DNA of 32,000 nt from contig WJIL01000134.1 in NCBI GenBank assembly GCA_014730275.1, forward strand, positions 1-32,000. The letters are read 5' to 3'. Under the pieces are notes generated by a model that saw only the letters and a program-made list of their open reading frames with translations, ran no database searches and was not told where the DNA came from. The number at the start of each line of letters is the position of its first letter. Position 1 is the stretch's first letter. A program made the position numbers and the translations under genes. Of this stretch, positions 1 through 27,779 are shown piece by piece. Origin of the DNA: Promethearchaeota archaeon (GTDB lineage Archaea > Asgardarchaeota > Thorarchaeia > Thorarchaeales > Thorarchaeaceae).

Positions 1-1499
1 GGACCTGATGAAGTCCCTTGTTTGGAGAGTGAGGACTTCTGCTTAGAAGAACCAGTCTTCCTTACAGCCTTCGGGGCTGGGCGCTTCTCCCGTGGGGGAG
101 TGGCCCACCGCCCTAGTCCTGTCTCATCCCTTAGATAAGGAGTGAGCTTGATCAAACGACGTGCGATGTTCAACGAGCCGTTCCTATCGGCATTGGTGCG
201 AAACCCACAGGTATGACAGACAAACAGCGATTGCTTGGGCCTGACACCCTTCTTCCCGCACTTCCAGCACATAATCGAGGTCCAGCTCTCAGGTACCACC
301 TGAAAGCGTGCGCCTTTGCCATCGACCGGCCACCCAAGCTGCTCAAGATTGTGCTTGAGGGTCTCAGTTATCCGTGCGAACGCCCAAGAGTGTATCATCC
401 CCCGGAACCTCCGCCCTTTGTAGTTACCGCGCCGAGCAGTGTACCTAATGTTTTTGAGCCGACCGATAGCCACGTACAGGGTGTATCGCTCAGACAGTTC
501 GGTGATGTAATCGAGCATCTGGCTGACCATGAACCGGTCATACTCCTTGGCTACGCGATAGCGCTTGCCTTTCAGTCCTCGGAGTCGCGCTGCTAGGTCA
601 TCGTGAGGGGTGGCATTGTTCTTCCTCGTATGCCTCTCGTACTGGAGCTGGGCAACCAGATCATCAAGCTCCTTGATACGCTCGACCTTGTCTTCCTGTA
701 CAAAGTACCTGGTCTTGCTGACCCTCCGTGGGGTCAATAGCGTCGTGCAGGCGGCTTTCTCAATACCAAGGTCGATACCGAGGACAGCCTCTGGGAGGTC
801 GTCATCAGGTGGTTCCGGTGTGTCAACTCTGACCGCAAAGGTCACCCACCATTTACCTTTTCTGTCCGTGAAAATCTGTAGTGCTTTGATTTCACCTCTT
901 GAAAATTGGTTGGTATGGAACGGCGAGACATTGAGCGGGATAAGTAGTCGGTCGTGAATCCTTCGTCCTTCCGGAACAGAGTCGAGGGAGTCCCGAAGGT
1001 CGAGCCACCACCGTGCAGTACTGGTCTCGTGCTGTCTGAGTGTGAACCGTTGCGAGAAGACCCATCGGGGGATACGCCGAGACGAAGATAGCCTCTTGCA
1101 GGGACGCGATGCCCTGCGGCCGTTCTTGTTGCGAAGCTCCAGATAACTCTCGTACATCTGGACAGCGGTCTGTCTGCATTCAATCAGCTCATTTGCTGAC
1201 ACTCTAGGAAATTGTTCTTTCATGTTATGGGGAACGGTCAGCCTCTGCTCGTACCCCTCTTTGACCTTAACGGCTGTCATGGTGAGCTTGTCCAGCTCAC
1301 CGGCATGGATCCTCGTGCTCTTCTTCCCTTTCAACAACTCGTCTTCGTGTTCCTCGATAACACCGAGGAAGGCATGGATGGCCCGTGTGTCACGACCAAC
1401 AATCTGCCTCAGTCGCTGTTTGGTGCGGCCTGTCATCTCCCCGTACTTGATTGGTACCTTGACACTGATTGTTGTCCCCTGAGACCGACCCATCGTCAT
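1..1499 (-). CDS. tnpB: TnpB-like RNA-guided endonuclease (IS200/IS605 family OrfB); C-terminal end lies beyond the window edge
   Basis: Not on the supplied ORF track because there is no in-window stop. My manual reverse-complement translation from the ATG at 1499 reads open to position 1, at least 499 codons: MTMGRSQGTTISVKVPIKYGEM... It contains a RuvC-I-like LGIDLGIEKAA, a zinc finger CWKCG..x..CHTCG and a RuvC-III-like NADRNGSLNIARR. I checked the frame at four separate places (positions 839, 599, 239 and the 1-180 tail). The plus-strand ORFs 213-596, 610-957 and 1212-1535 are antisense shadows of this gene. Confidence 0.85.
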   Translation of the reverse strand, partial: MTMGRSQGTTISVKVPIKYGEMTGRTKQRLRQIVGRDTRAIHAFLGVIEEHEDELLKGKKSTRIHAGELDKLTMTAVKVKEGYEQRLTVPHNMKEQFPRVSANELIECRQTAVQMYESYLELRNKNGRRASRPCKRLSSSRRIPRWVFSQRFTLRQHETSTARWWLDLRDSLDSVPEGRRIHDRLLIPLNVSPFHTNQFSRGEIKALQIFTDRKGKWWVTFAVRVDTPEPPDDDLPEAVLGIDLGIEKAACTTLLTPRRVSKTRYFVQEDKVERIKELDDLVAQLQYERHTRKNNATPHDDLAARLRGLKGKRYRVAKEYDRFMVSQMLDYITELSERYTLYVAIGRLKNIRYTARRGNYKGRRFRGMIHSWAFARITETLKHNLEQLGWPVDGKGARFQVVPESWTSIMCWKCGKKGVRPKQSLFVCHTCGFRTNADRNGSLNIARRLIKLTPYLRDETGLGRWATPPREKRPAPKAVRKTGSSKQKSSLSKQGTSSG

Positions 1500-1503
1500 C
1501 GCC

Positions 1504-1616
1504 TTATGATATTTAAGTTTCTAACCTGTTTGTAGGTAATTGAGTTCACTCCCCTGTTTGTTCTATGAGAGGTTATTGAACTCATACTTCTATGTATCAT
1601 TATGATATTTAAGTTT
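1504..1616. repeat. Exact 17-bp direct repeat TTATGATATTTAAGTTT at 1504-1520 and 1600-1616
   Basis: Read directly from the sequence. On the minus strand it reads AAACTTAAATATCATAA, which is TATA-box-like, immediately upstream of the tnpB start. An exact 17-mer pair is not expected by chance in 32 kb. Confidence 0.8.
1522..1560. repeat. Left copy of an imperfect direct repeat (core TAACCTGTTTGTAGGTAATTG) shared with 8081-8125
   Basis: By-eye alignment gives 18 of 21 columns identical in the core, plus a second short block (CACTCCC / CAACTCCC) at a different spacing. Statistically weak: a few such pairs are expected by chance in 32 kb. Confidence 0.3.
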
Positions 1617-2000
1617 ATTAAGCACATTCAAAATAAAGCATTATGAAGGCTCTCTATCCAAAAAGAAGAGATATGAAGCCTTATTATAAATTCAATTAAG
1701 GCTAGAAATACATATAAAGGATGAGTGTTTCCGTTGGTGTAAATAACCAAAAAAGATGAACAGAGGGCATATCAGTGCTGTTTTCGGTAGAGTTTGTAGA
1801 TACCGTGGTATTCCTTTGGTGGGAAAAGTACCTTGCCACCCGCTCATCATGCTGAAAAAATCTGGGCTTGCCCCTTGTTGAGACGACGAGGAGAGAACCC
1901 TTGAGGCCCACTATCGATTTCTGGACCGTGCTTTCGCGTGATATAACTGCTAGGAGTACTGTCACGTCAGGAAATTGTGTATTTCCGCCCGCTACCTTCT

Positions 2001-2059
2001 GTACAGGTGTACATAGCAAGTCTTCCTGCAACCATACCTACCGTACGGGTGTACATAGT
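2001..2059 (+). promoter_or_regulatory. Two 17-bp direct repeats (GTACAGGTGTACATAGC / GTACGGGTGTACATAGT) spaced 42 bp apart; candidate operator or promoter element of the 2080-7700 operon
   Basis: The repeats lie at 2001-2017 and 2043-2059 and match at 16 of 17 positions. Each contains the palindrome TGTACA. The second copy ends 21 nt before the ATG at 2080. Confidence 0.4.
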
Positions 2060-2079
2060 GCTGTTATGAGGGGTGGCAG

Positions 2080-2754
2080 ATGATCAGAAAGCGGACCGTC
2101 TTTCCATCAGCAGCCGAAGTGAACTCCGGAGAGGTTACTGACCCCAATGAGATCTATGTCAAATCCGTACTTTCCAAAGGCAAGGAAGATAGGACGGGGA
2201 TACTCATCGAGTCTGTATGGGGCGTGGAATACGAAACGAAAACCGTCCGTTTCGTCCGCGGGAACCTGATCACCCGGTTTACAAAACTCCCAATCACCTC
2301 ATCCGATGTTCCAGACAGGCACCTCCGATCAGCAAGCAAAGTAGCCCGAGCGATATTCGACTTGGAGCGGTTCAATGGGCTGGTACTCACTGAAGACCCT
2401 GATTTGAGCACAGTGTATAGGGCGGAACGGGACTCACACTCAGAGGTCTTTACAAGCAAACAGGACGCACGTATCTGGTGCTCACTCATCGACGCCGATG
2501 ACACGCGGATTGTCCCCGTCCAGCCGAGTGAAGCACCATTGGCAAAGGCTCGAAAGAATAGCGAAGATGTCCAGAATATAGTCCTCCGGCTCCTCTACCA
2601 GGCCCTCGCCGGGTTGGAAGCCCTAGACACGCTGCATTCGATGCGGCGACGCGGTACTGGGTCAGCCGAGCTGGAGGCGATATGGGAGAGGGTTTTCAAC
2701 AAAAGACAGTTCCCTGACAAGCTTGCCGAGGTATTGCATCAGGGACAGCAATGA
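2080..2754 (+). CDS. Hypothetical 224-aa protein, upstream partner of the giant ORF; no recognisable motif
   Basis: ORF on the supplied track. Its stop overlaps the start of the next ORF as ATGA (2751-2754), implying translational coupling. Its GC-rich composition matches the giant ORF. Confidence 0.7.
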   Translation: MIRKRTVFPSAAEVNSGEVTDPNEIYVKSVLSKGKEDRTGILIESVWGVEYETKTVRFVRGNLITRFTKLPITSSDVPDRHLRSASKVARAIFDLERFNGLVLTEDPDLSTVYRAERDSHSEVFTSKQDARIWCSLIDADDTRIVPVQPSEAPLAKARKNSEDVQNIVLRLLYQALAGLEALDTLHSMRRRGTGSAELEAIWERVFNKRQFPDKLAEVLHQGQQ

Positions 2755-5700
2755 GAAACAAGGCGGTAGCGGCTGAAATGAATGGCGGATACCCAAAAAA
2801 TCCCAGCAAGGTGTTTAGTAAGGCTATCTACACCGGCCTGTCCACCCTCGTCCAGCTTGCCCGCAAGCGAACCACCAAGCAGCCGAAAGTCCAGCGACTG
2901 GTGGCAGGCATCGAGGTGATGTGGCAGGAAGCCCGAGACGAACTGGAAGCGCTGAAAGATATACGTCCCCACGACTTTTCGCCAGTCCAGTCACGGGAGC
3001 CCAACATGCGGAAGAGCTTCCTTGGTGTGCTCTGGTGGACGACTTGGCCGTACGGGAACAAGGAGTTCAAGCGGGTGTACAGCTGGCAGGAGGGCACCAT
3101 CGGTCCGCTCAACGAGCTCCTGAACTTCGCCGGGGCAGAGCTCCGTCTCTTGGCTATCACCCGCTATCCCTTCCCTGAGCCCAACTATTACCAGATTTGG
3201 AAAACTCCAGATGAGCGGCGCATCGTTGTGGACACAAAGGTCGCCAAGAAGGTCCGGGTGGAGAACTACGAATCAGGATACGTGAAGGCGGGATACCCGG
3301 CAACGTCCAGTTCTCCCCGGGTTCTGCTCCGGCACCCGAGCCTGCCGAGCCTCGACTTTGTTGACATGATCCGTGCACACGTGGTCGAGCTCATCCGACA
3401 GTGCTTCATCCACAACGTCCCGAAGAAAGACGCCCAGCGGTATATCCGGCTCCTCATCTACAGGCTCAGGCCGTTCTTGGATTGGGTCTACACGGACGGG
3501 GATTATGGCCGCAAGCATTTCCATCCCGGGGCGACTCAGGAACTTATGAAGATCGTCAGGGAAATCCGCGCTATCTATTCCCGGACCACGGGGAAGATCA
3601 CTCGCCTGACCCACCAGCTCGACAAGGAGGACGGGGTTGAAAGTGCTGAGAAGTGTAGGGCTCCAACCGTGGCCGAGATAGTACGGCAGCTCAAGGCTGC
3701 TTTTGAACGCGACCCTTCTGACCAAACCAAACACATCATCTGTAGTATCTTGAAACGCATCAAGCTGAGTGACCTGAAGCACGACGAGCTGAGGGCATTC
3801 GTTGACCAGATAGTACAACAGAAAGAAGAAGGAAAACGGGACAACAAGGAAACGAAGGACAGGGAGAACGCCCTGACAGACCGCGACGCAGAGCATTTCG
3901 TGGAGAAAATCGAGACGCTGTCGAGCCGGCAGGGCAACTACTGGCACAAATTCTTGTTCAGTGACATGTATCACCCATACTCACTCAAGGCGGCTGTCTT
4001 CTATGGTGACAAGGGCTTGGATACACCTGATGACACGCTGATAGCAGCAGAGGTCCCCGTAAGCGGCACAAAAGGAACGGGCAAGGCAGATATCGTGGTG
4101 TTTGTCCGGCGGGATGTAGGTGACCGTGCGGTATGGACCCCTGTGATGCTCCTTGATATCAAGACGAAGACAGGGATAGACTGGGAACTTCTAGGTGTGC
4201 GACCTAGGTCGAAAAAGGACGCGAGAGTTCCGCATTTCTATCTCAGCAAGCGCTCCCTGAGCCAAGAGGAATGGGAGCATATCGTAGCCACCGCCCCTTC
4301 GAAAAGGAGTCGTGGACAGCTTGATGCATATGGGACGAACCTCCTGCAGGAGTACAAGAGTATCATTGCAGACCCCGAAACCCCAGAGAAGCTGTATCGG
4401 GGTGTGGTTCTCGTCGATGCAAATGAGGACAGGTTCACCGTTTTTGACGCATTGCCTGGGTTGATTCGGCAAGTCCTTGACAGAATCAGTTCTGCTTCCG
4501 GTTCATCCAACACTCCTATCGCATATACGATCACAACATCCGAAGATCCAGAACAAGGGACGAGCCCACATATTGCACTCGTCCTGGAGGACACAACAGG
4601 GCCCTACTCTCTCATGGAAAAGACCATGCCGCTTATGGAACTCGAAGGAGCTGACCCCTTCGCATCACGAGAGAAAGACGATACCCTGTTCACCCTCTAC
4701 CTATCCGTAGCGTCATCTATCTCGGCGGGACCATCAGCAGCATGGGTTTCAAGGAACTGGCACTTGCTGAATCATCTCCGTGAGCAGTTCGAGCACACTG
4801 GGAACACTCCTGACATTGTGTGGGTGGACCTGCTCGGTGATCTCCCAACGCAGGAACTTGCGATAACACGGCTGAGGCTTGACATGCAGCGGTTATCTCC
4901 AGCATGGAAGGAGCATATCCAGAGGCTCAGAGGATTCCTGAAAAACATCCGTATAGTCAATCTAAAGGACAAAATGATTGACGCCGTCTTCGGTACAGCC
5001 CAAGATACCATCCATAACTTGGAAGTAACACTACGGGAAGAGCTGTCCACAAAGGAAACAAAAATTGTGGTCATCGATGGCTGGGCAGACCTCCGGGATA
5101 TGAGCCCTCAGCGGTGTGCCAATACGCTGAAGGCCCTTGAGCATGCACTGGTCGAATGTTTGAAAGGGGCAGCTGACGAGGTGGTCTGGCTTGATAGACC
5201 AGTTCCGTTGCCAAAGACATCAGCGACGTATCAGAAACGGAAGATGAATCCCCTACCTCACAACTCCCCGCGGCACCGCCTGCTGGACGAGATCATCTGG
5301 AACCTGCCGACCCCGCCCAAAGTGCTGGGCTGGAAAACTCCACTGCGGGAAGATGTCCGAGTGATAGTCCAGGACACACCGACCAGTGCCCCTCCCTGGA
5401 AGGCCAGTATCTTCGTACCACACCTCACAGCCTGGGCAGAACGTTTCCGGGGATACTCGCGAAAGGACAGGACGGTGAGCTTTGAGGAGGTACGAGAAGC
5501 CCAGCTCCGACCCATGTACGGCCGAGGTGTGATGCTCAGCTCGGTGTCCTGCAATGTCTCGTCACTCCCGCCGTACACCACTGAGGATGTCTGTGCCGAC
5601 GCTACCTTGCTGGCACCGAGCCTTACTCGACGGGATGAGGACATGGATGAAGTGGAGTATCCAGAGACAGACTGGTTTCAAGTCCGGAGAATGGAAGCAA

Positions 5701-7700
5701 AGGACCCAGAAGGATACGACAGTGACGGACGCGAACTGCTCAGGCACGTGACGTTCAGAGTCCTTGGCAACGCAGAGCCAGTGGACAAAGATGAAAGGAA
5801 GGAAGGCGACCCAGGGCCTCTCTACACCTCACCTGATACCATCACCAGAGGCTGGAGACGATGGAAGCCCAGTGTTGAAGAACAACAGGAGAAGGAGTGG
5901 GACGACAGCACACGGGGAGTATTGAGGCCTCCTCCGGTCGCTCCTACCCGGCCGGAGTACATCGATACGTTCGAGACGCGGAGACGGGAGGTCATTCGCC
6001 TACGCAATACTGCACGATTTCTTAGACGAATCACCCCTAGACATGAGGCCAGAGAATGGAAGAAGCTACTGGAGGAGCTTGCAGAGATTGCAGAAAGGGC
6101 TTTCACGCCAAGGGGAAGGATGTGGCCTCCAATCAAAATACTACGAAAAATCAAGCAAAAGTTACAAACGAACTTCAAATCGAGTTCCATGTGGAAGATC
6201 CTGCGAGGAGTACGGGAAGATGTCCTTATCGATTCATACGTGCATATCAGTAATACCCTTGCTGAAGTCAAGAAACATAACCCGGACGTCCTATCCCTCT
6301 ATGGCAACCATTTCGTCTTGCTATTGCTTGCACTTGAAAGGAAGTGGTTGAGGCAGAACCAAGGACCTGTGCTCACCATCCTTTGGCGGGTGTTATGGCG
6401 CTGGCAACTTGTGCAGATGGGGTTTGCCACGAAGAAGCAGGAGCTTATCGACACGAAATACGATGTCCATGCCATCTGGTCGAACCTAGTCTGGAGGGCA
6501 AAGGTCCTTGCAGAAACAGTCCGCTTCACCCGGCCAACGGATATGGTTAGGCGTGCGGTAATGGTCTCAGATGAGCAGGAGAGCGATTTCTGGATGTTCA
6601 TCGAGGACGCACCGGGGAGCGACAGGTTTGAGGTAGCATATGTCCCCCTAGCGCGTGGCGAGAACTTCTGGGGCTGGCACCCAGCTGAAACAGACCTGAA
6701 AGTGTTGGCAGATAAGGCAGAACGGACAGGAACAACGAACGAGACATACCACGTTATCACGAGAGCAGGGGGAAAAGACGTCCTGTGGAACTGGTACGTT
6801 AATCCCGCGAGTGGCGAATACTGGGATCCCAGTTGCATTATCGAGTATGGGCCGTCCCCGCCCGATAGGCCTTTTCCGATACGGTGGGTGAAGAAATCCA
6901 GAGTGCCAAACGAGCTCCGCCCCCTCACTCCCCTGCCGTTTGACCAGGAAAGCCAGAGGGTCGAATACGAACGAATCAGGGGACACCTCAAAGAAATCGG
7001 GGTCTGTGGTGAACGGGTGAGGGAGGTGGAATGCCGGGTATCACTGGATACGCGCGAAAGAGCATATGAGATACAGTTCATCGATTCGAACAGCGGAGAG
7101 ACGGTGACAGTCTACAAGGCCAAGCGGACAGCCGAAGCACTCCAGGTGCTGAGGGGCCCGCTGTCAGGGCAACCGCCCTTCGAGACCGAAGAAGGTGAGG
7201 TTTTGATATGGGACGCGCGCCAGGACGTGGAGTATACAGATGTCGAGACAGAGGGCCGGGTGTTCAGTCTCAGTATGCTCAGGCCCGTTGTACACAGGAA
7301 CAAAGTGGTGACCGGGACCATTGTCATCCCGAGGACGGCAGACGAGCTCCTGGAGAGCTCTGCAGGGGAAGAGGTGAAACTCGTTTTTACTCCTGAACGG
7401 GCGTTGGACCATTATCCGGAATATAGCACTCGCTGGAGAGTATGGTTTCTTGAAGACAAATATGGAGAAACACTGCTGGGACTGGACGATACGCGGCTGA
7501 GCATCTACGATGTCGGCCACCTGATTGAGAGCAGGCAGCTCTATGATAGTGACACCAAGCAGTTGCATCCCATGTATGTCATCTTGAACAGGGTCAAGGA
7601 CTTCGCTACTCAGGCTGATCTTGCGGATTTTCCATTGTTTGCAGATAAGATCAAAGAGAGCAAGAAGAGGAAAGAAATGAAGCAGACCCACAGCAGATGA
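2751..7700 (+). CDS. Giant 1649-aa hypothetical protein with an internal RecB/Cas4-like PD-(D/E)xK nuclease core (about aa 430-530); the remainder is unassignable
   Basis: Uninterrupted 4950-nt ORF. The motif series is E434 (AAEVPV), G-K-A-D447-IVVF, LL-D469-I-K471-TKTG and Q523-LDA-Y527, which corresponds to the RecB-family motifs E, GxhD, (D/E)xK and QxxxY. I found no Walker A/B, methyltransferase or helicase motifs by eye. Confidence 0.85.
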   Translation: MRNKAVAAEMNGGYPKNPSKVFSKAIYTGLSTLVQLARKRTTKQPKVQRLVAGIEVMWQEARDELEALKDIRPHDFSPVQSREPNMRKSFLGVLWWTTWPYGNKEFKRVYSWQEGTIGPLNELLNFAGAELRLLAITRYPFPEPNYYQIWKTPDERRIVVDTKVAKKVRVENYESGYVKAGYPATSSSPRVLLRHPSLPSLDFVDMIRAHVVELIRQCFIHNVPKKDAQRYIRLLIYRLRPFLDWVYTDGDYGRKHFHPGATQELMKIVREIRAIYSRTTGKITRLTHQLDKEDGVESAEKCRAPTVAEIVRQLKAAFERDPSDQTKHIICSILKRIKLSDLKHDELRAFVDQIVQQKEEGKRDNKETKDRENALTDRDAEHFVEKIETLSSRQGNYWHKFLFSDMYHPYSLKAAVFYGDKGLDTPDDTLIAAEVPVSGTKGTGKADIVVFVRRDVGDRAVWTPVMLLDIKTKTGIDWELLGVRPRSKKDARVPHFYLSKRSLSQEEWEHIVATAPSKRSRGQLDAYGTNLLQEYKSIIADPETPEKLYRGVVLVDANEDRFTVFDALPGLIRQVLDRISSASGSSNTPIAYTITTSEDPEQGTSPHIALVLEDTTGPYSLMEKTMPLMELEGADPFASREKDDTLFTLYLSVASSISAGPSAAWVSRNWHLLNHLREQFEHTGNTPDIVWVDLLGDLPTQELAITRLRLDMQRLSPAWKEHIQRLRGFLKNIRIVNLKDKMIDAVFGTAQDTIHNLEVTLREELSTKETKIVVIDGWADLRDMSPQRCANTLKALEHALVECLKGAADEVVWLDRPVPLPKTSATYQKRKMNPLPHNSPRHRLLDEIIWNLPTPPKVLGWKTPLREDVRVIVQDTPTSAPPWKASIFVPHLTAWAERFRGYSRKDRTVSFEEVREAQLRPMYGRGVMLSSVSCNVSSLPPYTTEDVCADATLLAPSLTRRDEDMDEVEYPETDWFQVRRMEAKDPEGYDSDGRELLRHVTFRVLGNAEPVDKDERKEGDPGPLYTSPDTITRGWRRWKPSVEEQQEKEWDDSTRGVLRPPPVAPTRPEYIDTFETRRREVIRLRNTARFLRRITPRHEAREWKKLLEELAEIAERAFTPRGRMWPPIKILRKIKQKLQTNFKSSSMWKILRGVREDVLIDSYVHISNTLAEVKKHNPDVLSLYGNHFVLLLLALERKWLRQNQGPVLTILWRVLWRWQLVQMGFATKKQELIDTKYDVHAIWSNLVWRAKVLAETVRFTRPTDMVRRAVMVSDEQESDFWMFIEDAPGSDRFEVAYVPLARGENFWGWHPAETDLKVLADKAERTGTTNETYHVITRAGGKDVLWNWYVNPASGEYWDPSCIIEYGPSPPDRPFPIRWVKKSRVPNELRPLTPLPFDQESQRVEYERIRGHLKEIGVCGERVREVECRVSLDTRERAYEIQFIDSNSGETVTVYKAKRTAEALQVLRGPLSGQPPFETEEGEVLIWDARQDVEYTDVETEGRVFSLSMLRPVVHRNKVVTGTIVIPRTADELLESSAGEEVKLVFTPERALDHYPEYSTRWRVWFLEDKYGETLLGLDDTRLSIYDVGHLIESRQLYDSDTKQLHPMYVILNRVKDFATQADLADFPLFADKIKESKKRKEMKQTHSR

Positions 7701-7843
7701 CCGCGTGGTGGCTGCAAAAGCCGTAGATTTGTGAAGCTCATTACACAACCTACAATCCCAACGTACGTATCCGGACTCCTGCCATGCGTGAAGGATATCG
7801 ATTTGATGCATGCAGGATGGTCTATCTCCCACACGAGGTAACA

Positions 7844-7906
7844 GGAAATCTTACAGAAATCTTACACTTCTATACGCCCATTTATTTAGGATTCTGTAAG
7901 ATTTCC
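7844..7906. repeat. 13-bp perfect inverted repeat GGAAATCTTACAG / CTGTAAGATTTCC; the left arm is tandemly duplicated (GAAATCTTACA x2)
   Basis: Left arm 7844-7856, tandem second copy 7856-7866, right arm 7894-7906. It lies about 145 nt downstream of the giant ORF stop. Confidence 0.7.
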
Positions 7907-8080
7907 ATCTCTCGGGAATTGTGGGCATCCAATTACGCTCCTCCAAGACAACGAATCAGAGTCGTTCATTATTTAAAAGAATTCTCCTTTTCTCAGAGTT
8001 GTATACAGTTTTCTAGTAAATCGCAACAATCCCCTTGATGGGTTTGATAAGCTATCACGTTAGGTCTACTTTATTCTCGA

Positions 8081-8125
8081 TAACTGATTGTAGGTGATTG
8101 CTTACATCGCAACTCCCTTTTATTC
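8081..8125. repeat. Right copy of the imperfect direct repeat shared with 1522-1560 (core TAACTGATTGTAGGTGATTG)
   Basis: See the left copy at 1522-1560. It sits at the transition from GC-rich island to AT-richer host sequence. Confidence 0.3.
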
Positions 8126-8161
8126 AAAAAATAATACTTATCCAGGAAGAGGTAGATTCCA

Positions 8162-9031
8162 ATGGCCCGAAGAAACGCTCTCCTCATAGTGGTTACAACG
8201 CTGTTGATTCTCATAGCCGTTTCACCATCAGAAACAACTGCTGCACGCACAGGGCCAAACCGTACAATAGCTCCAAGCGCCCAGGTTTTCACGATAGACG
8301 AGTTCACCTACAGGGTTTCCTTCAGGCTATCAGACGGAGTTGAAGTCCTCCTTCTGCGCGGATCGTTCGAGCTCCTGTATTACTATCAGCACCATCACCC
8401 CACCGTCAGCAAACACCACATCTCAGCAGTGTTTGGGTTTTACTATGCGAAATCAGCCCTTGGAAGAACACTGATCCGCTCAGCAGAAGTGGATAGAGTC
8501 GCGTTTTACCCGATGTGGTCGAGCTTTAGTGGACACACCTATGACTGGGTTGATACCGGCCCAGCATTACAACTGAATGATACACTTGTGGACGGGCAGA
8601 TGATTGGAACACGGCCAATGATTACCAACAAGCCCTTGAGCCGCTATCTCCCTAGTTTTGGGGGAATCTTCGTCTTTGAGGGGCTGACTATCAAGCTACG
8701 GGATGGTACATCCATACGGGTTGGTGAAGACCCAATCCGAATCGCATTGGAAAAGGAAAGCAGCAAGATGGATCCCAGAGGCTCCATTGAAGCTATGAAT
8801 GCAAACCTGAGCTATGAATCGAGTGTCCGGTTGATGACACTCACAATCCCATCTGGAGGTGTATCGGGTATCATCACAGCCGATATGCTCACCGCGGTTT
8901 CACTTGCTGGAATCGGTATCGTAGCGGCGACTGTGTTCATTCTCCAACGCACCAACCGTATACATGTTTCTCTGGACCGAATACGAAGTATGCTGCAGCA
9001 AAGGCAAGAAGAAGGTGAACCTGAGTCGTAG
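8162..9031 (+). CDS. Hypothetical secreted or membrane-anchored protein (N-terminal signal/anchor, C-terminal TM helix)
   Basis: ORF on the track. The N-terminus MARRNALLIVVTTLLILIAVSP is hydrophobic and signal-like. The C-terminus LTAVSLAGIGIVAATVFIL is TM-like and followed by a charged tail. Confidence 0.7.
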   Translation: MARRNALLIVVTTLLILIAVSPSETTAARTGPNRTIAPSAQVFTIDEFTYRVSFRLSDGVEVLLLRGSFELLYYYQHHHPTVSKHHISAVFGFYYAKSALGRTLIRSAEVDRVAFYPMWSSFSGHTYDWVDTGPALQLNDTLVDGQMIGTRPMITNKPLSRYLPSFGGIFVFEGLTIKLRDGTSIRVGEDPIRIALEKESSKMDPRGSIEAMNANLSYESSVRLMTLTIPSGGVSGIITADMLTAVSLAGIGIVAATVFILQRTNRIHVSLDRIRSMLQQRQEEGEPES

Positions 9032-9059: not shown

Positions 9060-9084
9060 CCGTACATCTTCACATCTGAAAATA

Positions 9085-9198
9085 GGCCGGTCACAGCCGT
9101 TGGATCCCACCGGAACCCATTCCGAACTCCGCAGTTAAGTCCAACGACGTTGCGGGACATGTGCGCGCTAGCGCGCGTGACAGGCCCGCAAACTGGCC
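9085..9198 (+). rRNA. rrf: 5S ribosomal RNA (stand-alone, no adjacent 16S/23S)
   Basis: The segment CCCACCGGAACCCATTCCGAACTCCGCAGTTAAGT matches the universal 5S loop-C / helix-III core. The terminal helix GGCCGGT / ACTGGCC closes the molecule with one G-U pair. An internal helix TTGCGGG / CCCGCAA encloses a CGCGC-TAG-GCGCG hairpin. Ends are accurate to about 2 nt. Confidence 0.88.
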
Positions 9199-9302
9199 AT
9201 TCTCTATATTGATGATTTCTTTTCCACGAAAGGAGAGAGCAGACCTATTACATTTTCACGGGCAACTAAACGTTTTAATGGCAACAACAATCTTCTCCTT
9301 TC

Positions 9303-10439: not shown

Positions 10440-10871
10440 ATGAGCAAGTTACTGAAGGCAATTGGAATCGTATTTGCTGCGGCTGGAGCTATAGTAGTCT
10501 TCTATGGCATGACGTTTGGAGAAGATCTCTGGTCATATGTTCTGTTCTTTCTCGGCTTAGTGGGTATGTCGATAGGATTCAGTCTTTTGACAGCAGGAAG
10601 AGGTGGCGAAGAGATGGAACCGCCGCCGCCAACCGTTACCGAGATTCGATGTTCATCTCCAGACTGTGACTTCAAAGAAATCCGTGATTTCGAAGAAGGA
10701 GATTATGTTCTGAAAGTACTGGATAAGGGATGCCCCAAATGCGAGGGGAAAATGGTGATTGAGGGGGTCTACGTCGTGCGTGAGGAAGAAGAGGCGGAAA
10801 AAGGGCGCTTCTCAGTCCCCCAAGGTCAAGGTGAGGGTCCGCCCCCGTCCAACAAACACGGTATGTTCTGA
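10440..10871 (+). CDS. Small membrane protein with a C-terminal zinc ribbon (CSSPDC...CPKCEG)
   Basis: ORF on the track with two N-terminal hydrophobic helices and a CxxxxC...CxxC pair. Its 3' end overlaps the convergent MetAP gene by 60 nt. Confidence 0.6.
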   Translation: MSKLLKAIGIVFAAAGAIVVFYGMTFGEDLWSYVLFFLGLVGMSIGFSLLTAGRGGEEMEPPPPTVTEIRCSSPDCDFKEIRDFEEGDYVLKVLDKGCPKCEGKMVIEGVYVVREEEEAEKGRFSVPQGQGEGPPPSNKHGMF

Positions 10872-11711
10872 CTGGCTTACAGGTCGGTTCCCCTTCTCAA
10901 CCAGAACGGGATAGGCTTTGATTGCATTTGAATCCAAAAGCTTCGTAAATTCTTTCTCAACATTCAGGCCTCCATCCCGTGTTCCAACCCATCTGGCTGC
11001 AAACGGAAGAGGGCCATACGTCTTCAGCAAGTGGTCTCTCAGTTTCTGGGTCACGTCATCAAGCGAGGCTTCGGTTCGCGTATTTGAGAAGATGTAGGTA
11101 TATTTTGTATCCGCTACTTTTCCAGTACCGGTTGTGGCGAAAGGTTCAATCGCATATATGTCGCCCACCTCTATTTTGTCAGTGAATCGCTGTTTCACAT
11201 TCGGAACCTGTTTACCAGCATGGAGTCGAAACCGTTTCATCTGGTGACCGCTGAGATTACGAATAGGTCTCAAGCCATAGGCACGGATTACTTCCTCTAT
11301 TTTCGATCCCACTTCACCCAACGATACACCGGGTCGCATGAGACTGATAGCTTCTTGTAACGCATCATCCGTTGCAGCAATGAAGCCTTCCAATTCCCCA
11401 TCCATATCTACCGTACGAGCCGTATCCGCTATGTAGCCATCCACATGAACTCCAATATCGAGCTTCACCAAGCCGCTATCAGGGATTGTGGAATCGTCAT
11501 TTCGGGGAGAGGTGTAATGGGCGGCAATATGATCAATAGACACATTGCAGGGAAATGCTGGTTTCGCCCCCATTTCAGTGATTCTGGATTCAGCATACTC
11601 ACATACTTCCAGAATATTCATACCAGGTTCTAATTTGTCCGCAGTATCATCCCGTACTTTTGCCGCGATTTTGCCGGCTTTCCGCTGAGCTGCTTTCGGT
11701 TCTTCAACCAT
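10812..11711 (-). CDS. map: Methionine aminopeptidase, archaeal type 2 (copy 1)
   Basis: Pita-bread fold metal ligands are recognisable: KLDIGVHVDGYIAD, SGHQM, AIEPF and SQSEHTV. The length of 299 aa is typical of archaeal MetAP. Confidence 0.9.
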   Translation of the reverse strand: MVEEPKAAQRKAGKIAAKVRDDTADKLEPGMNILEVCEYAESRITEMGAKPAFPCNVSIDHIAAHYTSPRNDDSTIPDSGLVKLDIGVHVDGYIADTARTVDMDGELEGFIAATDDALQEAISLMRPGVSLGEVGSKIEEVIRAYGLRPIRNLSGHQMKRFRLHAGKQVPNVKQRFTDKIEVGDIYAIEPFATTGTGKVADTKYTYIFSNTRTEASLDDVTQKLRDHLLKTYGPLPFAARWVGTRDGGLNVEKEFTKLLDSNAIKAYPVLVEKGNRPVSQSEHTVFVGRGRTLTLTLGD

Positions 11712-11723
11712 GTATTTATCCTC

Positions 11724-12617
11724 CTAGAGCATTGTGGTGACAATAGCTCCGTCTTCTGCGACGAATACTGTATGTTCTTTCTGGGAGACCATGCCATCCT
11801 TCCCATCCAACAGTACCGGGTAGCCAAGTATCACCCTTTTACGTAGCAGAGTTTTGAGTTGGTGCGTCATATCCAAGTTCGTATCATATATCCACCGCGA
11901 AGCCCAAGGTAAGGATCCGAATAGACGTCGCGCTTTATCGCGGAGTCGTTTAGTTTCTCCTTCCAGATGTGTTCCACATGATAAGTTATTCCTGAAAATA
12001 TACATCCTCCGGTCACTAGTAATGGAACCGTCTCCATCTGTGGCAAAGGGCTCGATTGCAAAGGTATCGCCAGCCCTCATTGTGCTCCCCATTTTTGAGC
12101 CAACATTTGGTACATTGCGACCAGCATGTAGCGTCCATGGTTTGAGTTCATGGCCTGACAGCTGGTACACTGGTTGTAAATCGTGATTTCGAATTGCTTC
12201 CTCAATGGCGGCGCCAACTTGACCGGTCTTGATGCCGGGGCTGACTACCTCGATTGCGGCTTGAAGGGCATCCTCCACTGCGGCAATGTAGTGTCCAAAA
12301 GAACCGTCTAAATCAATCGTACTAGCCGTATCAGATATGTGACCGTTAACATGGGCACCGAGATCAATCTTGATCAGTCCTTTTTCCGGGATTTTCCGTG
12401 TATCTCCGTAGGGACTGGAGTAATGGGCTGCCTCACTGTTTATGGAAACGTTGCAGGGGAAAGCAGGATATGCACCTGTTTCGCGTATTTTTTGCTCCGC
12501 AAATTCACATATATCAATGACGCTTCTCCCCGGCGTCACGAGAGTTACGGTTTCATCAAGGACCCTTGCTGCGATTCGTCCTGCTTCTAGTGAGTCCGGG
12601 TGCGGTTTAGGTGCCAT
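11724..12617 (-). CDS. map: Methionine aminopeptidase, archaeal type 2 (copy 2, tandem paralog)
   Basis: KIDLGAHVNGHISD, SGHEL, AIEPF and SQKEHTV are all present, so every ligand position is retained. It lies 12 nt from copy 1 on the same strand. Confidence 0.9.
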   Translation of the reverse strand: MAPKPHPDSLEAGRIAARVLDETVTLVTPGRSVIDICEFAEQKIRETGAYPAFPCNVSINSEAAHYSSPYGDTRKIPEKGLIKIDLGAHVNGHISDTASTIDLDGSFGHYIAAVEDALQAAIEVVSPGIKTGQVGAAIEEAIRNHDLQPVYQLSGHELKPWTLHAGRNVPNVGSKMGSTMRAGDTFAIEPFATDGDGSITSDRRMYIFRNNLSCGTHLEGETKRLRDKARRLFGSLPWASRWIYDTNLDMTHQLKTLLRKRVILGYPVLLDGKDGMVSQKEHTVFVAEDGAIVTTML

Positions 12618-14215: not shown

Positions 14216-15514
14216 TTGGGAGCAGGCGACTTTGATAATTCAACTGCCAAGTACGTTATTAGAGCGAAGATTGAGATAGACGGCGTTGTTGACAAGCCAG
14301 ATGTCGTTGGTGCAATATTCGGTCAAACAGAAGGATTACTGGGCGAAGACTTGGATCTCAGGGAACTTCAACGAAGCGGACGTATTGGTAGAATTCAGAT
14401 TGGAATCAAATCAGAGAAAGGAAAAAGCAAAGGAGAAATCGTAATACCCGTCTCGATGGATAGAACTGCAACTGCTATCCTTGCTGCGTCAATGGAAACA
14501 GTTGATCGGGTTGGTCCATGTTCAGCTGAGGTGACTCTGCAGAAAGTAGAAGATATCCGCGGAGCTAAGCGCAGAAGAGTGGTCAGCAGAGCAATTAGTA
14601 TCTTAAAAGGATGGGAAGAAGAAATCGCTCCAGGCGCTGATGAGATAACGGATGCGGTGACGAAGGCAAAGAAGAGGGGTATCACCAAGTACGGTGAAGA
14701 TAAACTCCCCGCAGGCCCCAGTATGCCCGATAGCGACGAAGTAATCATAGTCGAGGGGCGGGCCGATGTCATTAATCTGATGAAGAGTGGTGTAACGAAT
14801 ACAATCTCAGCAGAAGGAACGAATATCCCCGAGTCGATTTCGGAGCTTTCTAAGAAAAAGGGAAAAGAGATCACAGCCTTTTTGGATGGTGACCGAGGTG
14901 GTGACCTGATACTTCGAGAACTCATGCAGGTTGCGGACATTGATTATATTGCACGAGCACCAAAGGGCAAGGAAGTTGAGGATTTGGATCGGAAAGCGGT
15001 ATCTAGAGCTCTTAAGAGGAAAATACCCGCTAAACAGGCCCTAAGCTTGCTAGAGAAAGACAAGAAGAAAGAAGAAGAAGAAGAAGAAGAAGAAGAAGAG
15101 AAGAAAGAGATTAGCAGGAAGAAAAGGACACCCAGCAAAAAGAAAGAGAAGAAACCTTCGCGCAAGAAGAAAGAAGAACGAAAACCACGTAAGAAACGAC
15201 CCCCAGAACGTAAGAAGGAGCGTGTAAACAAGGTTTATGTCAAGAAGGCGAAGGAACTGAAAGAGAGCTTCAAAGCTGCAGTCTTTGACAGGAATGACGA
15301 TCTCGTCAAGGAGTGCAAAGCTGCTGAACTAACGGATGTATTGAATTCGCTAGATGAAGCTAAAGCCATTGTTCTTGATGGTGTTGTAACACAGCGCCTT
15401 GTTGATACTGCGAAGGCGAAAGGTGTCAAAATCATTATTGCTGCGGCAACAGCTGAAATAGAGAGTAAACCTCGAGCCATGAAGCTAATTATGTTCGAGA
15501 AACTTAATCTATAA
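14216..15514 (+). CDS. dnaG: Archaeal DnaG primase / Toprim protein with a Lys/Glu-rich low-complexity insertion
   Basis: The N-terminal signature is KYVIRAKIEIDGVVDKPDVVGAIFGQTEGLLGEDLDLRELQRSGRIGRI. Toprim segments are IIVEGRADV and LDGDRGGDL. The start is TTG, with AAGGAG 8 nt upstream. Confidence 0.9.
   Translation: MGAGDFDNSTAKYVIRAKIEIDGVVDKPDVVGAIFGQTEGLLGEDLDLRELQRSGRIGRIQIGIKSEKGKSKGEIVIPVSMDRTATAILAASMETVDRVGPCSAEVTLQKVEDIRGAKRRRVVSRAISILKGWEEEIAPGADEITDAVTKAKKRGITKYGEDKLPAGPSMPDSDEVIIVEGRADVINLMKSGVTNTISAEGTNIPESISELSKKKGKEITAFLDGDRGGDLILRELMQVADIDYIARAPKGKEVEDLDRKAVSRALKRKIPAKQALSLLEKDKKKEEEEEEEEEEKKEISRKKRTPSKKKEKKPSRKKKEERKPRKKRPPERKKERVNKVYVKKAKELKESFKAAVFDRNDDLVKECKAAELTDVLNSLDEAKAIVLDGVVTQRLVDTAKAKGVKIIIAAATAEIESKPRAMKLIMFEKLNL
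15071..15097 (+). repeat. (GAA)9 microsatellite inside dnaG, encoding a poly-Glu run
   Basis: Read directly from the sequence; it is in frame as Glu codons. Confidence 0.95.
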
Positions 15515-20702: not shown

Positions 20703-21656
20703 TCACATCGCTTCCTCGATTTTTTCGAGAATTCTGCATACTCGACAGACCTTCGATGAAGTTGGATTTCCGCAATGAGTACACGAATTGAACTGAAACG
20801 AGCTGGGTTCCAATCTCATAGCCTCAGCAATCTTCTCAGAGGATCCAAGTACTGCGAGGAGCGTTCCTGGGTGGCTATGTTCCATCTTGTTCAGAAACTG
20901 CCGAACATCATTTCGATACGCTTCATGTGCATATGGACACGGAGCATCATGATAAGGGAGTGAAAAATGGTGAGCATAAGCAACGACGTCCCGTTCAGAT
21001 ATCTTGGTAATGGGTTTCACACGTGGGATGAATCCCGCCATTGTATCATCTCGAGTGCGATTAACCCGTCCAATGCGATGGGCATCGCCCCGTAGTACAT
21101 TCATGACCACGGTTTGGGCCTCATCGTCAAGATTATGCCCTGTTGCTATAACGTCACCATCAAGCTCTCGGGCAGCCTGGTTGATTGCCCTTCTTCTGAG
21201 AATGCCACAATATGAACACGCACCAAGCCCATTCTCCTCTCGATTTGCCACAATCTCATCAAGAGAATAGCCAAACAATTCCTTGAATGTGAGAACAGTA
21301 AGAGAAAGATTGAGTCCAGAAGTAAGTTCTCTTGCTGCCGTCAGTGCTTTGTCCCTATAACCTGTAATGCCTTCATCTATAGTAATTGGATACAGCTCGG
21401 TTTCAGGATATCCTTCTTCTATTCGTGCTAAAGTGTCAAGAAGGACTGCGCTATCTTTGCCTCCAGAAATCGCGACAATGATCCGATCGTCACGCTTGAA
21501 CATGCTTCGTTGGTTGATAGTGTTCCTAATCCTGTCCAATGTAGTGTCTAAAAGGCAGCTCTTGCATAGCCGTTCCGCCGTATACCTGCGGAAATATACC
21601 GCCTCTTGATTACATCTGGAGCATTGCAGGAACATCTCGTTCAGCTTCAGAAACAA
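20703..21656 (-). CDS. PP-loop ATPase, tRNA 2-thiolation enzyme (TtuA/Ncs6 family)
   Basis: The PP-loop is SGGKDS. There is an N-terminal zinc finger CSRCN..CKSC, an Fe-S ligand context CSYCGILRR and a C-terminal zinc finger CTHCG..CRVC. The start may be 21635 (MFLQCSRC). Confidence 0.85.
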   Translation of the reverse strand: MFLKLNEMFLQCSRCNQEAVYFRRYTAERLCKSCLLDTTLDRIRNTINQRSMFKRDDRIIVAISGGKDSAVLLDTLARIEEGYPETELYPITIDEGITGYRDKALTAARELTSGLNLSLTVLTFKELFGYSLDEIVANREENGLGACSYCGILRRRAINQAARELDGDVIATGHNLDDEAQTVVMNVLRGDAHRIGRVNRTRDDTMAGFIPRVKPITKISERDVVAYAHHFSLPYHDAPCPYAHEAYRNDVRQFLNKMEHSHPGTLLAVLGSSEKIAEAMRLEPSSFQFNSCTHCGNPTSSKVCRVCRILEKIEEAM

Positions 21657-21740
21657 CTTGTAAAGCTCGGTTAAAACTGCTTTTCTAGCTCAGCAAGCAC
21701 GATGTCCATCGTGCGCCCCATTCACAGGTTAGACGGGGTA

Positions 21741-27188: not shown

Positions 27189-27345
27189 ATTGCGATTTTA
27201 TGTCGAAAGGCCTCAGAAGATAATCAAAACGCTACCTTTTGAAGCACACGTTTGAATGTGAAAGAAGCAATGATTAAATCAGTACCTTCAGACAGTATTC
27301 TACGAAAACCCTTGAATCAACACTAGCAATCGAATAAATCAGCAC

Positions 27346-27452
27346 AGTAGGTTGGGGAAATCTGGTCTATCCCACGGGCACATATATTGCGATGGCCATG
27401 TTTGCCATCCATGGGACACCCCGAAATCGGACGTTCAAATCGTCCACGGAAC
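27346..27452 (+). pseudogene. Degenerate tandem copy of the intron-containing tRNA-iMet gene (the acceptor stem cannot pair)
   Basis: It aligns along its length with 27513-27619. The D-arm (GGGA..TCCC) and T-arm (GGACG-TTCAAAT-CGTCC) are intact. However, the 5' acceptor AGTAGGT cannot pair with the 3' ACGGAAC, and the anticodon stem and loop are disrupted (CGGGC / CCCCG, no U33). Confidence 0.6.
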
Positions 27453-27512
27453 CGGTCATTTGTCTTTACGAAAACCCTTAAATCAACACTGAGTAATCGA
27501 GTAAATCAGTAT

Positions 27513-27623
27513 AGCGGGTTGGGGAAGCCTGGCCTATCCCGCGGGGCTCATATGGCGATGACCACATGAGTCACGCATGGGGAAACCCCGAAACCGGACG
27601 TTCAAATCGTCCACCCGCTACCA
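27513..27623 (+). tRNA. Initiator tRNA-Met (CAT) with a 32-nt canonical-position intron (27553-27584) and an encoded CCA
   Basis: Hand-folded cloverleaf: acceptor AGCGGGT / ACCCGCT with A1-U72, D-stem GGGA / TCCC, and anticodon stem CGGGG / CCCCG carrying three G-C pairs next to the loop. The loop is CTCATA with the intron after position 37. The T-arm is GGACG-TTCAAAT-CGTCC, with discriminator A and CCA. Confidence 0.88.
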
Positions 27624-27779
27624 ATTTCTTATCAGCAATACGTGTAAATGGAAGGAAATAGAGCAAGTAATTGGTTACATTCTACCATTATCAATTCGTA
27701 TTTTGTGAACAAAAAGTGAAGAGTGGATGCACCGACCCAATCTTAAGACCGACTCGAGAGGCTAGTGGAAAAAGACAGC

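Follow-up and report, generated by a model that had tools for sequence, protein, structure and literature searches.

The 32,000-nt stretch of archaeal DNA analysed here (contig WJIL01000134.1; hereafter the window) carries a gene for a protein of 224 amino acids (aa) coupled to a gene for a giant protein of 1,649 aa. These two genes are probably the right-hand part, about two-thirds, of a ~7.9-kb Asgard-specific transposon-like element of the "aCas1-TnpB" family. In order, the element consists of a left-end hairpin with GTTCACTCAC in its loop, which lies beyond the window, tnpB on the minus strand, a control region, the 1,649-aa gene, and a short right end. Only in the window's subclade is the 224-aa gene, together with operator-like repeats of its own, inserted into this layout. 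The constant partner of the giant gene is TnpB, not the 224-aa gene. Copies of the element in relatives are referred to by locus numbers (L001 and so on).

tnpB and the giant gene form one block

An earlier note, made from this DNA alone, had described the two coupled genes as an orphan module in a GC-rich island beside a TnpB gene. Both open reading frames (ORFs) are present as described (Table 1), and the ATGA at 2751-2754 contains the stop codon of the small gene and the start codon of the giant gene, an arrangement of translational coupling. The island is real as well, with a GC content of 0.538 in the 224-aa gene and 0.543 in the giant gene versus 0.459 for positions 7907-32000, and the highest value among 5-kb windows outside the element does not exceed 0.482. 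Its limits had been drawn too narrowly, however: the GC-rich block exceeds 2080-7700, takes in the tnpB gene (0.545), and extends to ~7893-7906.

The word orphan has to be given up. Homologues that match the giant protein over its full length number at least 175 (1,550-1,900 aa, 32-39% identity, 96-99% coverage) and are annotated as hypothetical. Nearly all of their hosts are Thorarchaeota, Lokiarchaeota, or Promethearchaeati metagenome-assembled genomes (MAGs), and the window's protein is identical to the Lokiarchaeota MAG protein GF309_15200. An exhaustive phmmer search yielded 171 clusters at 50% identity, with no connection to other families. Furthermore, invariant residues are distributed over the entire length of the giant protein.

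The TnpB gene had been taken for a mobile element lying next to the pair; the adjacency is correct, but the gene is an invariant partner and not an incidental neighbor. In 56 of the 56 loci with sufficient upstream sequence, the giant gene is preceded by a divergently oriented TnpB-like gene, and the same holds for every context taken from gene look-ups. The gap between them is mostly 245-290 bp, and it widens to ~1170-1360 bp where the ~220-aa gene intervenes. Apart from TnpB, the neighbors of the giant gene vary by locus. Co-occurrence of the 224-aa and giant genes, as expected in the earlier note, holds wherever the small gene occurs (it sits between tnpB and the giant gene in 10/10 contexts), but the small gene is missing from most family members (~45 of 53 loci). 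Thus, the defining module consists of TnpB and the giant gene.

TnpB itself comes in two types. Type A (~557 aa; 31 loci, among them the window) has Gly in place of the RuvC-II Glu (AIGRL) and conserves the RuvC-I Asp (GIDLG), the zinc finger, and RuvC-III (NADRNG; NADxN). Type B, of ~717 aa, was found in 13 loci and has the canonical D/E/D triad. The window covers the first 499 codons of its tnpB, and the 3′ end and the presumed omegaRNA region lie past the edge. Relatives match PF01385 and phrog_506, a "transposase" family (6e-27).

A scan of species-representative genomes gave 66 loci; copies within one MAG number 3-6 and are diverged. The whole block is common to loci with unrelated flanks at 83-93% nucleotide identity; it begins ~20-40 nt outside the left hairpin and ends 0-190 nt after the giant-gene stop. 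Such shared blocks link the window with L001, L019 with L051, and L014 with L059; with both partners in the same MAG, they link L047 with L068, L027 with L038, and L008 with L010. Moreover, two segments of the window backbone (16.3-21.6 and 21.7-26.5 kb) are collinear with the two sides of another copy, L003. Where the window has ~100 bp between them (21635-21739), L003 has 10.9 kb with a 141-aa ORF, tnpB, the giant gene, and a gene for a DUF7948 protein, and we therefore read 21635-21739 as an empty site. tRNA genes lie within 20-400 nt of an element end in at least 10 loci, and in others tRNA-like sequences are found directly 3′ of the giant gene.

Individual copies and their surroundings

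Several copies show particular arrangements. In L018 and L026, a complete tRNA-Gly(TCC) gene (7054-7128 and 1103-1180, respectively) ends ~21 nt from the left-end motif, and a ~37-nt tRNA 3′-end fragment (…GGTTCGAGTCCCGGTGGCCGCACCA) follows right after the giant-gene stop (14299-14335 and 8354-8390); the pattern resembles an att-site duplication produced by integration into a tRNA gene. L051 has, at ~315-400 and hence outside its left end at 404, a degenerate solo left-end sequence (GAGTGAAC then GACCTGCTT..TGTG..AACCTCT), which suggests the remnant of a previous insertion at the same place. A Metallophos/cobalt-ABC/CbiQ cluster adjoins two distantly related copies, L001 (1776-6684) and L002 (16710-20758), on opposite sides and in opposite orientations, an arrangement that could mark either a recurrent insertion region or a local inversion.

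In one long-read MAG, the giant frame is broken in two copies (L068, 10001-15008; L066, 10001-14713), leaving ORFs of 309 and 444 codons, and homology continues beyond the breaks; these may be decaying copies or assembly indel errors. Two further copies, L043 and L057, are on contigs binned to an "uncultured Ignavibacteria bacterium" MAG. Because their TnpB is 77% identical to Thorarchaeota copies, mis-binning is likelier than transfer to bacteria.

Table 1. Positions of the element's genes, protein domains, and non-coding features in the window
Feature	Position	Strand	Basis or remarks
TnpB-like RNA-guided nuclease gene, type A	1499..<1	-	Six-frame translation; PF07282 (Cas12f1-like_TNB), E=2.5e-11
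Divergent control region (putative promoters)	1504..1616		TATA-box-like TTATGATATTTAAGTTT twice (1504-1520, 1600-1616), bracketing the hairpin
Two-tier hairpin	1542..1583	+	GAGTTCACTCC-(variable inner stem)-TTGAACTC; conserved in type-A loci
Operator-like palindromes GTAC-N4-GTAC (two)	2001-2016, 2043-2058		42-nt spacing, just 5′ of the 224-aa gene
224-aa gene	2080..2754	+	ORF; stop overlaps start of giant gene
1,649-aa giant gene ("aCas1")	2751..7700	+	ORF
Cas1-like N-terminal alpha-helical domain (~aa 15-290), candidate	2793..3620	+	hhalign profile match, motif correspondence
RecB/Cas4-type PD-(D/E)xK nuclease domain (~aa 385-565), putative	3903..4445	+	Motif set
RecA/RAD51/DnaB-like alpha/beta domain (~aa 640-900), very probable placement	4668..5450	+	Foldseek of aa 1-1000 model
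C-terminal helical bundle and beta-rich domains (aa 1060-1649)	5928..7697	+	Model of aa 960-1649
Right end of element	7844..7906		Tandem AAATCTTACA (7846-7866); perfect 15-nt inverted repeat

Domains of the giant protein

We propose that the giant protein may be the integrase or transposase of the element. Searches of Pfam, NCBIfam, PADLOC, and PHROGs gave zero matches for the giant and 224-aa proteins, family libraries run on 29 full-length relatives and 54 N-terminal domains returned nothing usable, and a PDB sequence search with the giant-family profile found no relative. The earlier note could assign no residues beyond the nuclease core to a known family; by profile comparison and structure prediction more becomes assignable, with a candidate Cas1-like N-terminal domain and a RecA/DnaB-like fold. 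AlphaFold models were obtained for aa 1-1000 (predicted local distance difference test [pLDDT] score, 83.9; predicted template modelling score, 0.85) and for aa 960-1649 (pLDDT, 80.5).

The candidate Cas1-like domain is helical with a small beta insertion, and its pLDDT is mostly >90. Its candidate catalytic residues, invariant or nearly so in the family, are E83, H195, D202, and D205, together with the GPLNxLLNxAG motif (N121, N125). Compared by hhalign with a profile of 10-11 diverse annotated Cas1 sequences from plasmids, the domain scored 26-30.6 (P=0.003-0.01) in an alignment collinear across the Cas1 catalytic domain; in the controls, 30 column-shuffled profiles scored at most 20.8 and the reversed one 13.8. 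The alignment pairs E83 with the Glu of GxEG, GPLNALLNYAG with NAxLNYGY, and LDFVDMIR with LALDLMEEFR. An E. coli-type Cas1e profile gave no signal in hhalign because it was too narrow, and the diverse Cas1 set was used instead. TIGR00287 (cas1) was matched by 1 of 54 family members, with an E value of 0.03.

A different family also appeared in the searches of this region. NCBIfam NF004424 (30S ribosomal protein S14) weakly matches the N-terminal 300 aa in 24 of 54 members (best E=0.0019). We treated this match as spurious; it is probably a short compositional or motif match.

A RecB/Cas4-like nuclease core had been recognized in the earlier note, and its motif set is borne out by the family: the motifs GxxxH (G395/H399), D447, D/E469-x-K471, and Q523-x3-Y527 are invariant, position 469 being either D or E. 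In the model, a beta-sheet core (aa 429-501) has flanking helices. The domain is without conserved cysteines and has no Cas4 Fe-S set. Aligned by hhalign with a profile of four Cas4 sequences, it scored 14.9, which is not significant because shuffles reached up to 20.3.

Foldseek results for the aa 1-1000 model are dominated by the RecA-like domain. The top PDB matches are RAD51 paralogues, Dmc1, RadA, DnaB, and KaiC (E ~1e-4, ~255 aligned columns), and the top BFVD matches are RecA and DnaB-like helicases. Judging from the beta-alpha-beta pattern, the match very probably falls at aa ~640-900. Walker A is degenerate (LSVASSISAGPSAAW in the window; family consensus, SVxSPTSSGxSAAW) and its Lys is absent, and a Walker-B-like Asp is kept (VVIDGW). 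The likeness is in fold only, and the domain does not qualify as a RecA/DnaB-type P-loop ATPase.

Toward the C terminus, ~690 residues are without a PDB fold match: the best PDB match of the aa 960-1649 model in Foldseek reached only E=0.056, and the C-terminal region had zero Pfam matches in 29 family members. The window copy keeps all candidate catalytic residues of the giant protein intact.

Hairpins, control region, and element ends

The TATA-like elements of the control region are putative promoters. L001 has the same duplicated element, and in every type-A locus a TTTAAA/TATAAA box is located ~35 nt 5′ of the GTTCACTC motif. In the window this motif lies at 1544-1551, within the two-tier hairpin, and it repeats, in inverted orientation, the motif that relatives carry downstream of tnpB. 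In an alignment of 33 loci, the outer 7-bp stem of the hairpin hardly varies, and its positions are 93% paired. The inner stems vary in sequence and yet fold (mean z=-2.9 versus mononucleotide shuffles; 24/33 below -2); the window hairpin has -14.9 kcal/mol and z=-2.9. Covariation of the inner stem, assessed by RNAalifold and by fixed-register pair counting, was only weak. Rfam gave no match to the hairpin and nothing in window positions 1-8300.

Downstream of tnpB, a variable stretch followed by a conserved GTTCACTCA has been described (PMC10691335). More than 20 of our type-A loci, among them L001, the 83% relative of the window, have GTTCACTCA(C) 110-130 nt 3′ of the tnpB stop, and the motif occupies a hairpin loop in 20 of 23 loci. 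The stem of this left-end hairpin is formed by the published "hypervariable" stretch paired with sequence beyond the motif. Because of this pairing, the stretch is less likely to be a guide and more likely to be a stem arm.

At the right end, the inverted repeat is made up of GGAAATCTTACAGAA at 7844-7858 and TTCTGTAAGATTTCC at 7892-7906. Homology to the 83%-identical L001/L006 element ends at 7893-7899, within this inverted repeat; the flanks beyond are unrelated, and GC falls. The stem at the right end is similar to that of the left-end hairpin (TTTCTTACA/TGTAAGAAA). CTTACA after the giant-gene stop occurs only in small-gene loci, five of them.

The 224-aa gene and its upstream repeats

The 224-aa family comprises 34 homologue clusters restricted to the subclade closest to the window, and an alignment of 7 sequences has 39 invariant columns. 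Pfam, PDB (profile search included), and PHROG searches with the 224-aa protein gave no match. The palindrome GTAC-N4-GTAC is present in 2-4 copies, ~42 nt apart, 5′ of the small gene in the window and in 6 of 7 related small-gene loci; in the seventh, L008, the upstream sequence ends at 66 nt. Where the small gene is lacking, the 1.4 kb preceding the giant gene contain no such palindrome. Furthermore, the sites upstream of small genes make up 19 of the 23 GTAC-N4-GTAC occurrences in 1.1 Mb. These data are consistent with the 224-aa protein being a DNA-binding regulator or an accessory subunit for GTAC-N4-GTAC sites that may have been acquired along with its operator. A Cas2-like identity was also considered for the 224-aa protein and was rejected (hhalign, P=0.26).

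Proposed mechanism and alternative explanations

From the architecture, conservation, multiple copies, and varied genomic positions of the block, all of them observed, we infer how the element might move. aCas1 has been proposed to be a transposase (PMC10691335). In our proposal, the giant protein would act as integrase or transposase, its RecB/Cas4-like nuclease excising or trimming the element ends. The Cas1-like domain would then join the 3′-OH ends to the target, as in Cas1 and casposases, often beside tRNA genes. The Lys-less RecA-like domain and the C-terminal half may supply DNA binding and oligomerization, roles that Cas2 or other partners have elsewhere. TnpB with its omegaRNA would cut element-free copies of the target site, providing homing or retention as in IS200/IS605, or would aid the choice of target. 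In the window's subclade, the operon would be regulated or assisted by the 224-aa protein through binding to the GTAC-N4-GTAC sites. A bolder version holds that the element is a natural RNA-guided, Cas1-driven transposon in which TnpB/omegaRNA selects or clears the target (in many cases sequence on the 3′ side of a tRNA gene), the Cas1-like domain integrates, and the GTTCACTC hairpins are the recognition sites; we put this forward as an unlikely but specific proposal.

A number of observations weigh against the transposon reading. The left end of the window's own copy is beyond the window edge, the right ends differ among subclades, and a search across all loci found no clean terminal inverted repeats (TIRs), target-site duplications (TSDs), or shared motif downstream of the giant gene. 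Cas1 homology, which we draw from the weak profile match (HH probability ~10%), the motif correspondence, and the literature, is supportive but weak; Pfam and PDB sequence searches retrieve no Cas1 for the giant protein, and the canonical N-terminal beta domain of Cas1 is absent from it. The trees of TnpB and the giant protein agree only weakly (Spearman 0.22; the nearest neighbor has the same TnpB type in 35/43 cases). The age of most paralogues (27-40% identity) could mean that activity is infrequent or that domestication has affected some copies, and activity has been demonstrated for no family member.

Such domestication could extend to the family as a whole. The giant proteins would then be cellular Thorarchaeota paralogues, and TnpB would be an exapted RNA-guided regulator of their transcription, like TldR-type or other immobilized TnpBs, acting on the hairpin/promoter region between the two genes. 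Several exapted TnpBs are documented (PMC10691335), the intergenic distance of 245-290 bp is strikingly constant and includes a conserved hairpin, type A TnpB is without the canonical RuvC-II Glu, and most paralogues are ancient but intact. We nonetheless regard a domesticated regulatory pair as quite unlikely. The Glu-to-Gly change is of the compensated-rearrangement kind that is predicted to stay active (PMC10691335), and type B TnpB has the full D/E/D triad. Moreover, the block is found in unrelated contexts, including copies that are 88-93% identical in one MAG, it has foreign GC, and an empty site is present in the window.

It is very unlikely, in turn, that the association is coincidental or targeted, with a ~1.9-kb TnpB insertion sequence, bounded by inverted GTTCACTC hairpins, favoring the region upstream of the giant gene, and with the giant gene being a separate selfish or host gene and not its transposase. 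TnpB is present at every one of the 56 giant genes with sufficient upstream sequence, the fetched loci contain no giant-free tnpB cassette, and recent copies share tnpB and the giant gene as a single block whose outer boundaries lie beyond both. What speaks for an independent insertion sequence, besides the weak co-phylogeny and the inverted motif copies that flank the tnpB cassette, is that many loci share 75-82% nucleotide identity across this cassette only, between the two GTTCACTC motifs. That the cassette stands out in DNA identity follows from the stronger conservation of TnpB at the protein level (62-79% amino acid identity versus 32-35% for the giant protein).

The earlier note had correctly placed the pair, by its foreign composition, in the world of mobile elements and genetic conflict, but the defense system it leaned toward is highly improbable. 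In such a system, invading DNA would be degraded by the giant nuclease together with its small partner, with TnpB/omegaRNA as a possible guide. Against the large multi-domain nuclease, the small coupled partner, the compositionally foreign and variable location, and the occurrence of Cas1 and Cas4 relatives in defense systems stand the absence of any PADLOC-DB 2.0 match at E<=1 for either protein, the lack of a CRISPR array and of a Cas2-like partner, housekeeping neighbors that vary by locus with no recurrent defense genes, a small partner missing from most members, a family with no relative in IMG/VR contigs and phage records, and a multi-copy, tRNA-adjacent, block-wise distribution that is the pattern of a transposon.

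Other features of the window

A 5S rRNA gene is located at 9083-9201 on the plus strand (RF00001, 51 bits), ~1.2 kb to the right of the element end. On the minus strand, 10812-11711 and 11724-12617 are adjacent, tandem paralogous genes for M24 methionine-aminopeptidase-like proteins. Positions 27301-27625 comprise two tandem units of ~166 nt, with repeated blocks that are 94-96% identical and a common upstream box. Each unit looks like an intron-containing tRNA, with a CAT anticodon region and the T-arm GGACGTTCAAATCGTCC; ARAGORN and Rfam made no call.

Implications

CRISPR-Cas has two mobile-element roots: Cas1, which is its integrase, and TnpB, from which Cas12 descends. To our knowledge, the present family is the only non-CRISPR setting in which relatives of Cas1 and TnpB are obligately linked. 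The aCas1-TnpB family is abundant in the archaea closest to eukaryotes and is experimentally untouched. If the giant protein is an integrase working with an RNA-guided nuclease, it could offer a new route to programmable DNA insertion. Should the RNA-guided, Cas1-driven version be true, the family would be a living coupling of a Cas1 integrase with a Cas12 ancestor outside CRISPR and a new programmable insertion machine, and it would bear on how the adaptation and interference modules of type V CRISPR were joined. The analysis also supplies a parts list for bench work: candidate catalytic residues, end hairpins, a putative subclade regulator with its operators, recent copy pairs, and an empty site. 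In terms of annotation, ~170 clusters of "hypothetical" 1,600-aa Asgard MAG proteins would be relabelled as genes of mobile elements and not of hosts or defense.

Comparison with known systems

The earlier note knew of no named system that fits the locus; one exists. Asgard aCas1-TnpB elements with the TnpB branches Cas1H-Asgard-1 and -2 were reported by Altae-Tran et al. (2023; PMC10691335), who cite Makarova et al. (2020; CRISPR J 3:156). We equate the giant protein with the aCas1 of these TnpBs because it is their only conserved neighbor. The term aCas1 was defined by Makarova et al., reportedly for large Cas1-containing proteins beside OrfB/TnpB. The locus matches these elements, and the window's subclade carries the extra small gene. 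Shared features are the Asgard hosts, a TnpB beside a candidate Cas1 homologue, two TnpB lineages, GTTCACTCA downstream of tnpB after a variable stretch, and a mobile or repeat-flanked nature. Beyond those descriptions, we found that the partner is a protein of 1,550-1,900 aa with a RecB-type nuclease motif set, a RecA-like fold, and a C-terminal half without PDB match; that the region separating tnpB from the giant gene has a second, inverted GTTCACTC hairpin; and that one subclade has the 224-aa gene with operator-like repeats.

Casposons are archaeal chromosomal elements with a Cas1 "casposase", some of them with Cas4-like nucleases. Our element shares with them a Cas1-family integrase as the proposed transposase and common insertion next to tRNA genes. 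In contrast to casposons, it is without a match to a polymerase domain (family B DNA polymerase) and without convincing TIRs or TSDs; moreover, its Cas1-like domain, which has no N-terminal beta domain, is built into a giant protein, and TnpB is invariably present.

With IS200/IS605 and IS607, the element has in common a conserved non-coding region 3′ of TnpB that ends at the boundary, subterminal hairpins in place of long TIRs, and a plausible homing or retention role for TnpB. It is, however, 4-5 times larger, and its TnpB is larger as well (~540-720 aa) and is transcribed divergently from the putative transposase. tnpB and the giant gene, joined in certain copies by the small gene, are the only genes of the shared block, and none of them had a match to a Y1 TnpA or a serine recombinase.

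CRISPR Cas4-Cas1 fusions likewise combine Cas1-like and Cas4/RecB-like nuclease domains in a single polypeptide, and the repeat-like motif of the aCas1-TnpB elements resembles the start of a CRISPR repeat (PMC10691335). In the giant protein, on the other hand, the Cas1-like domain precedes the nuclease, Fe-S cysteines and a Cas2 are missing, and there are ~1,100 extra residues; the window contains no CRISPR array, and no cas genes were found among the neighbors.

Finally, the type V-K CRISPR-associated transposon (CAST) resembles the element in that an RNA-guided protein of the TnpB/Cas12 family is physically linked to a transposition machine. CAST combines Tn7-like TnsB/TnsC/TniQ with a nuclease-dead Cas12k and a CRISPR array, whereas in the aCas1-TnpB element the partner is Cas1-like, the TnpB catalytic site is kept (type B) or rearranged (type A), and RNA-guided targeting is putative.

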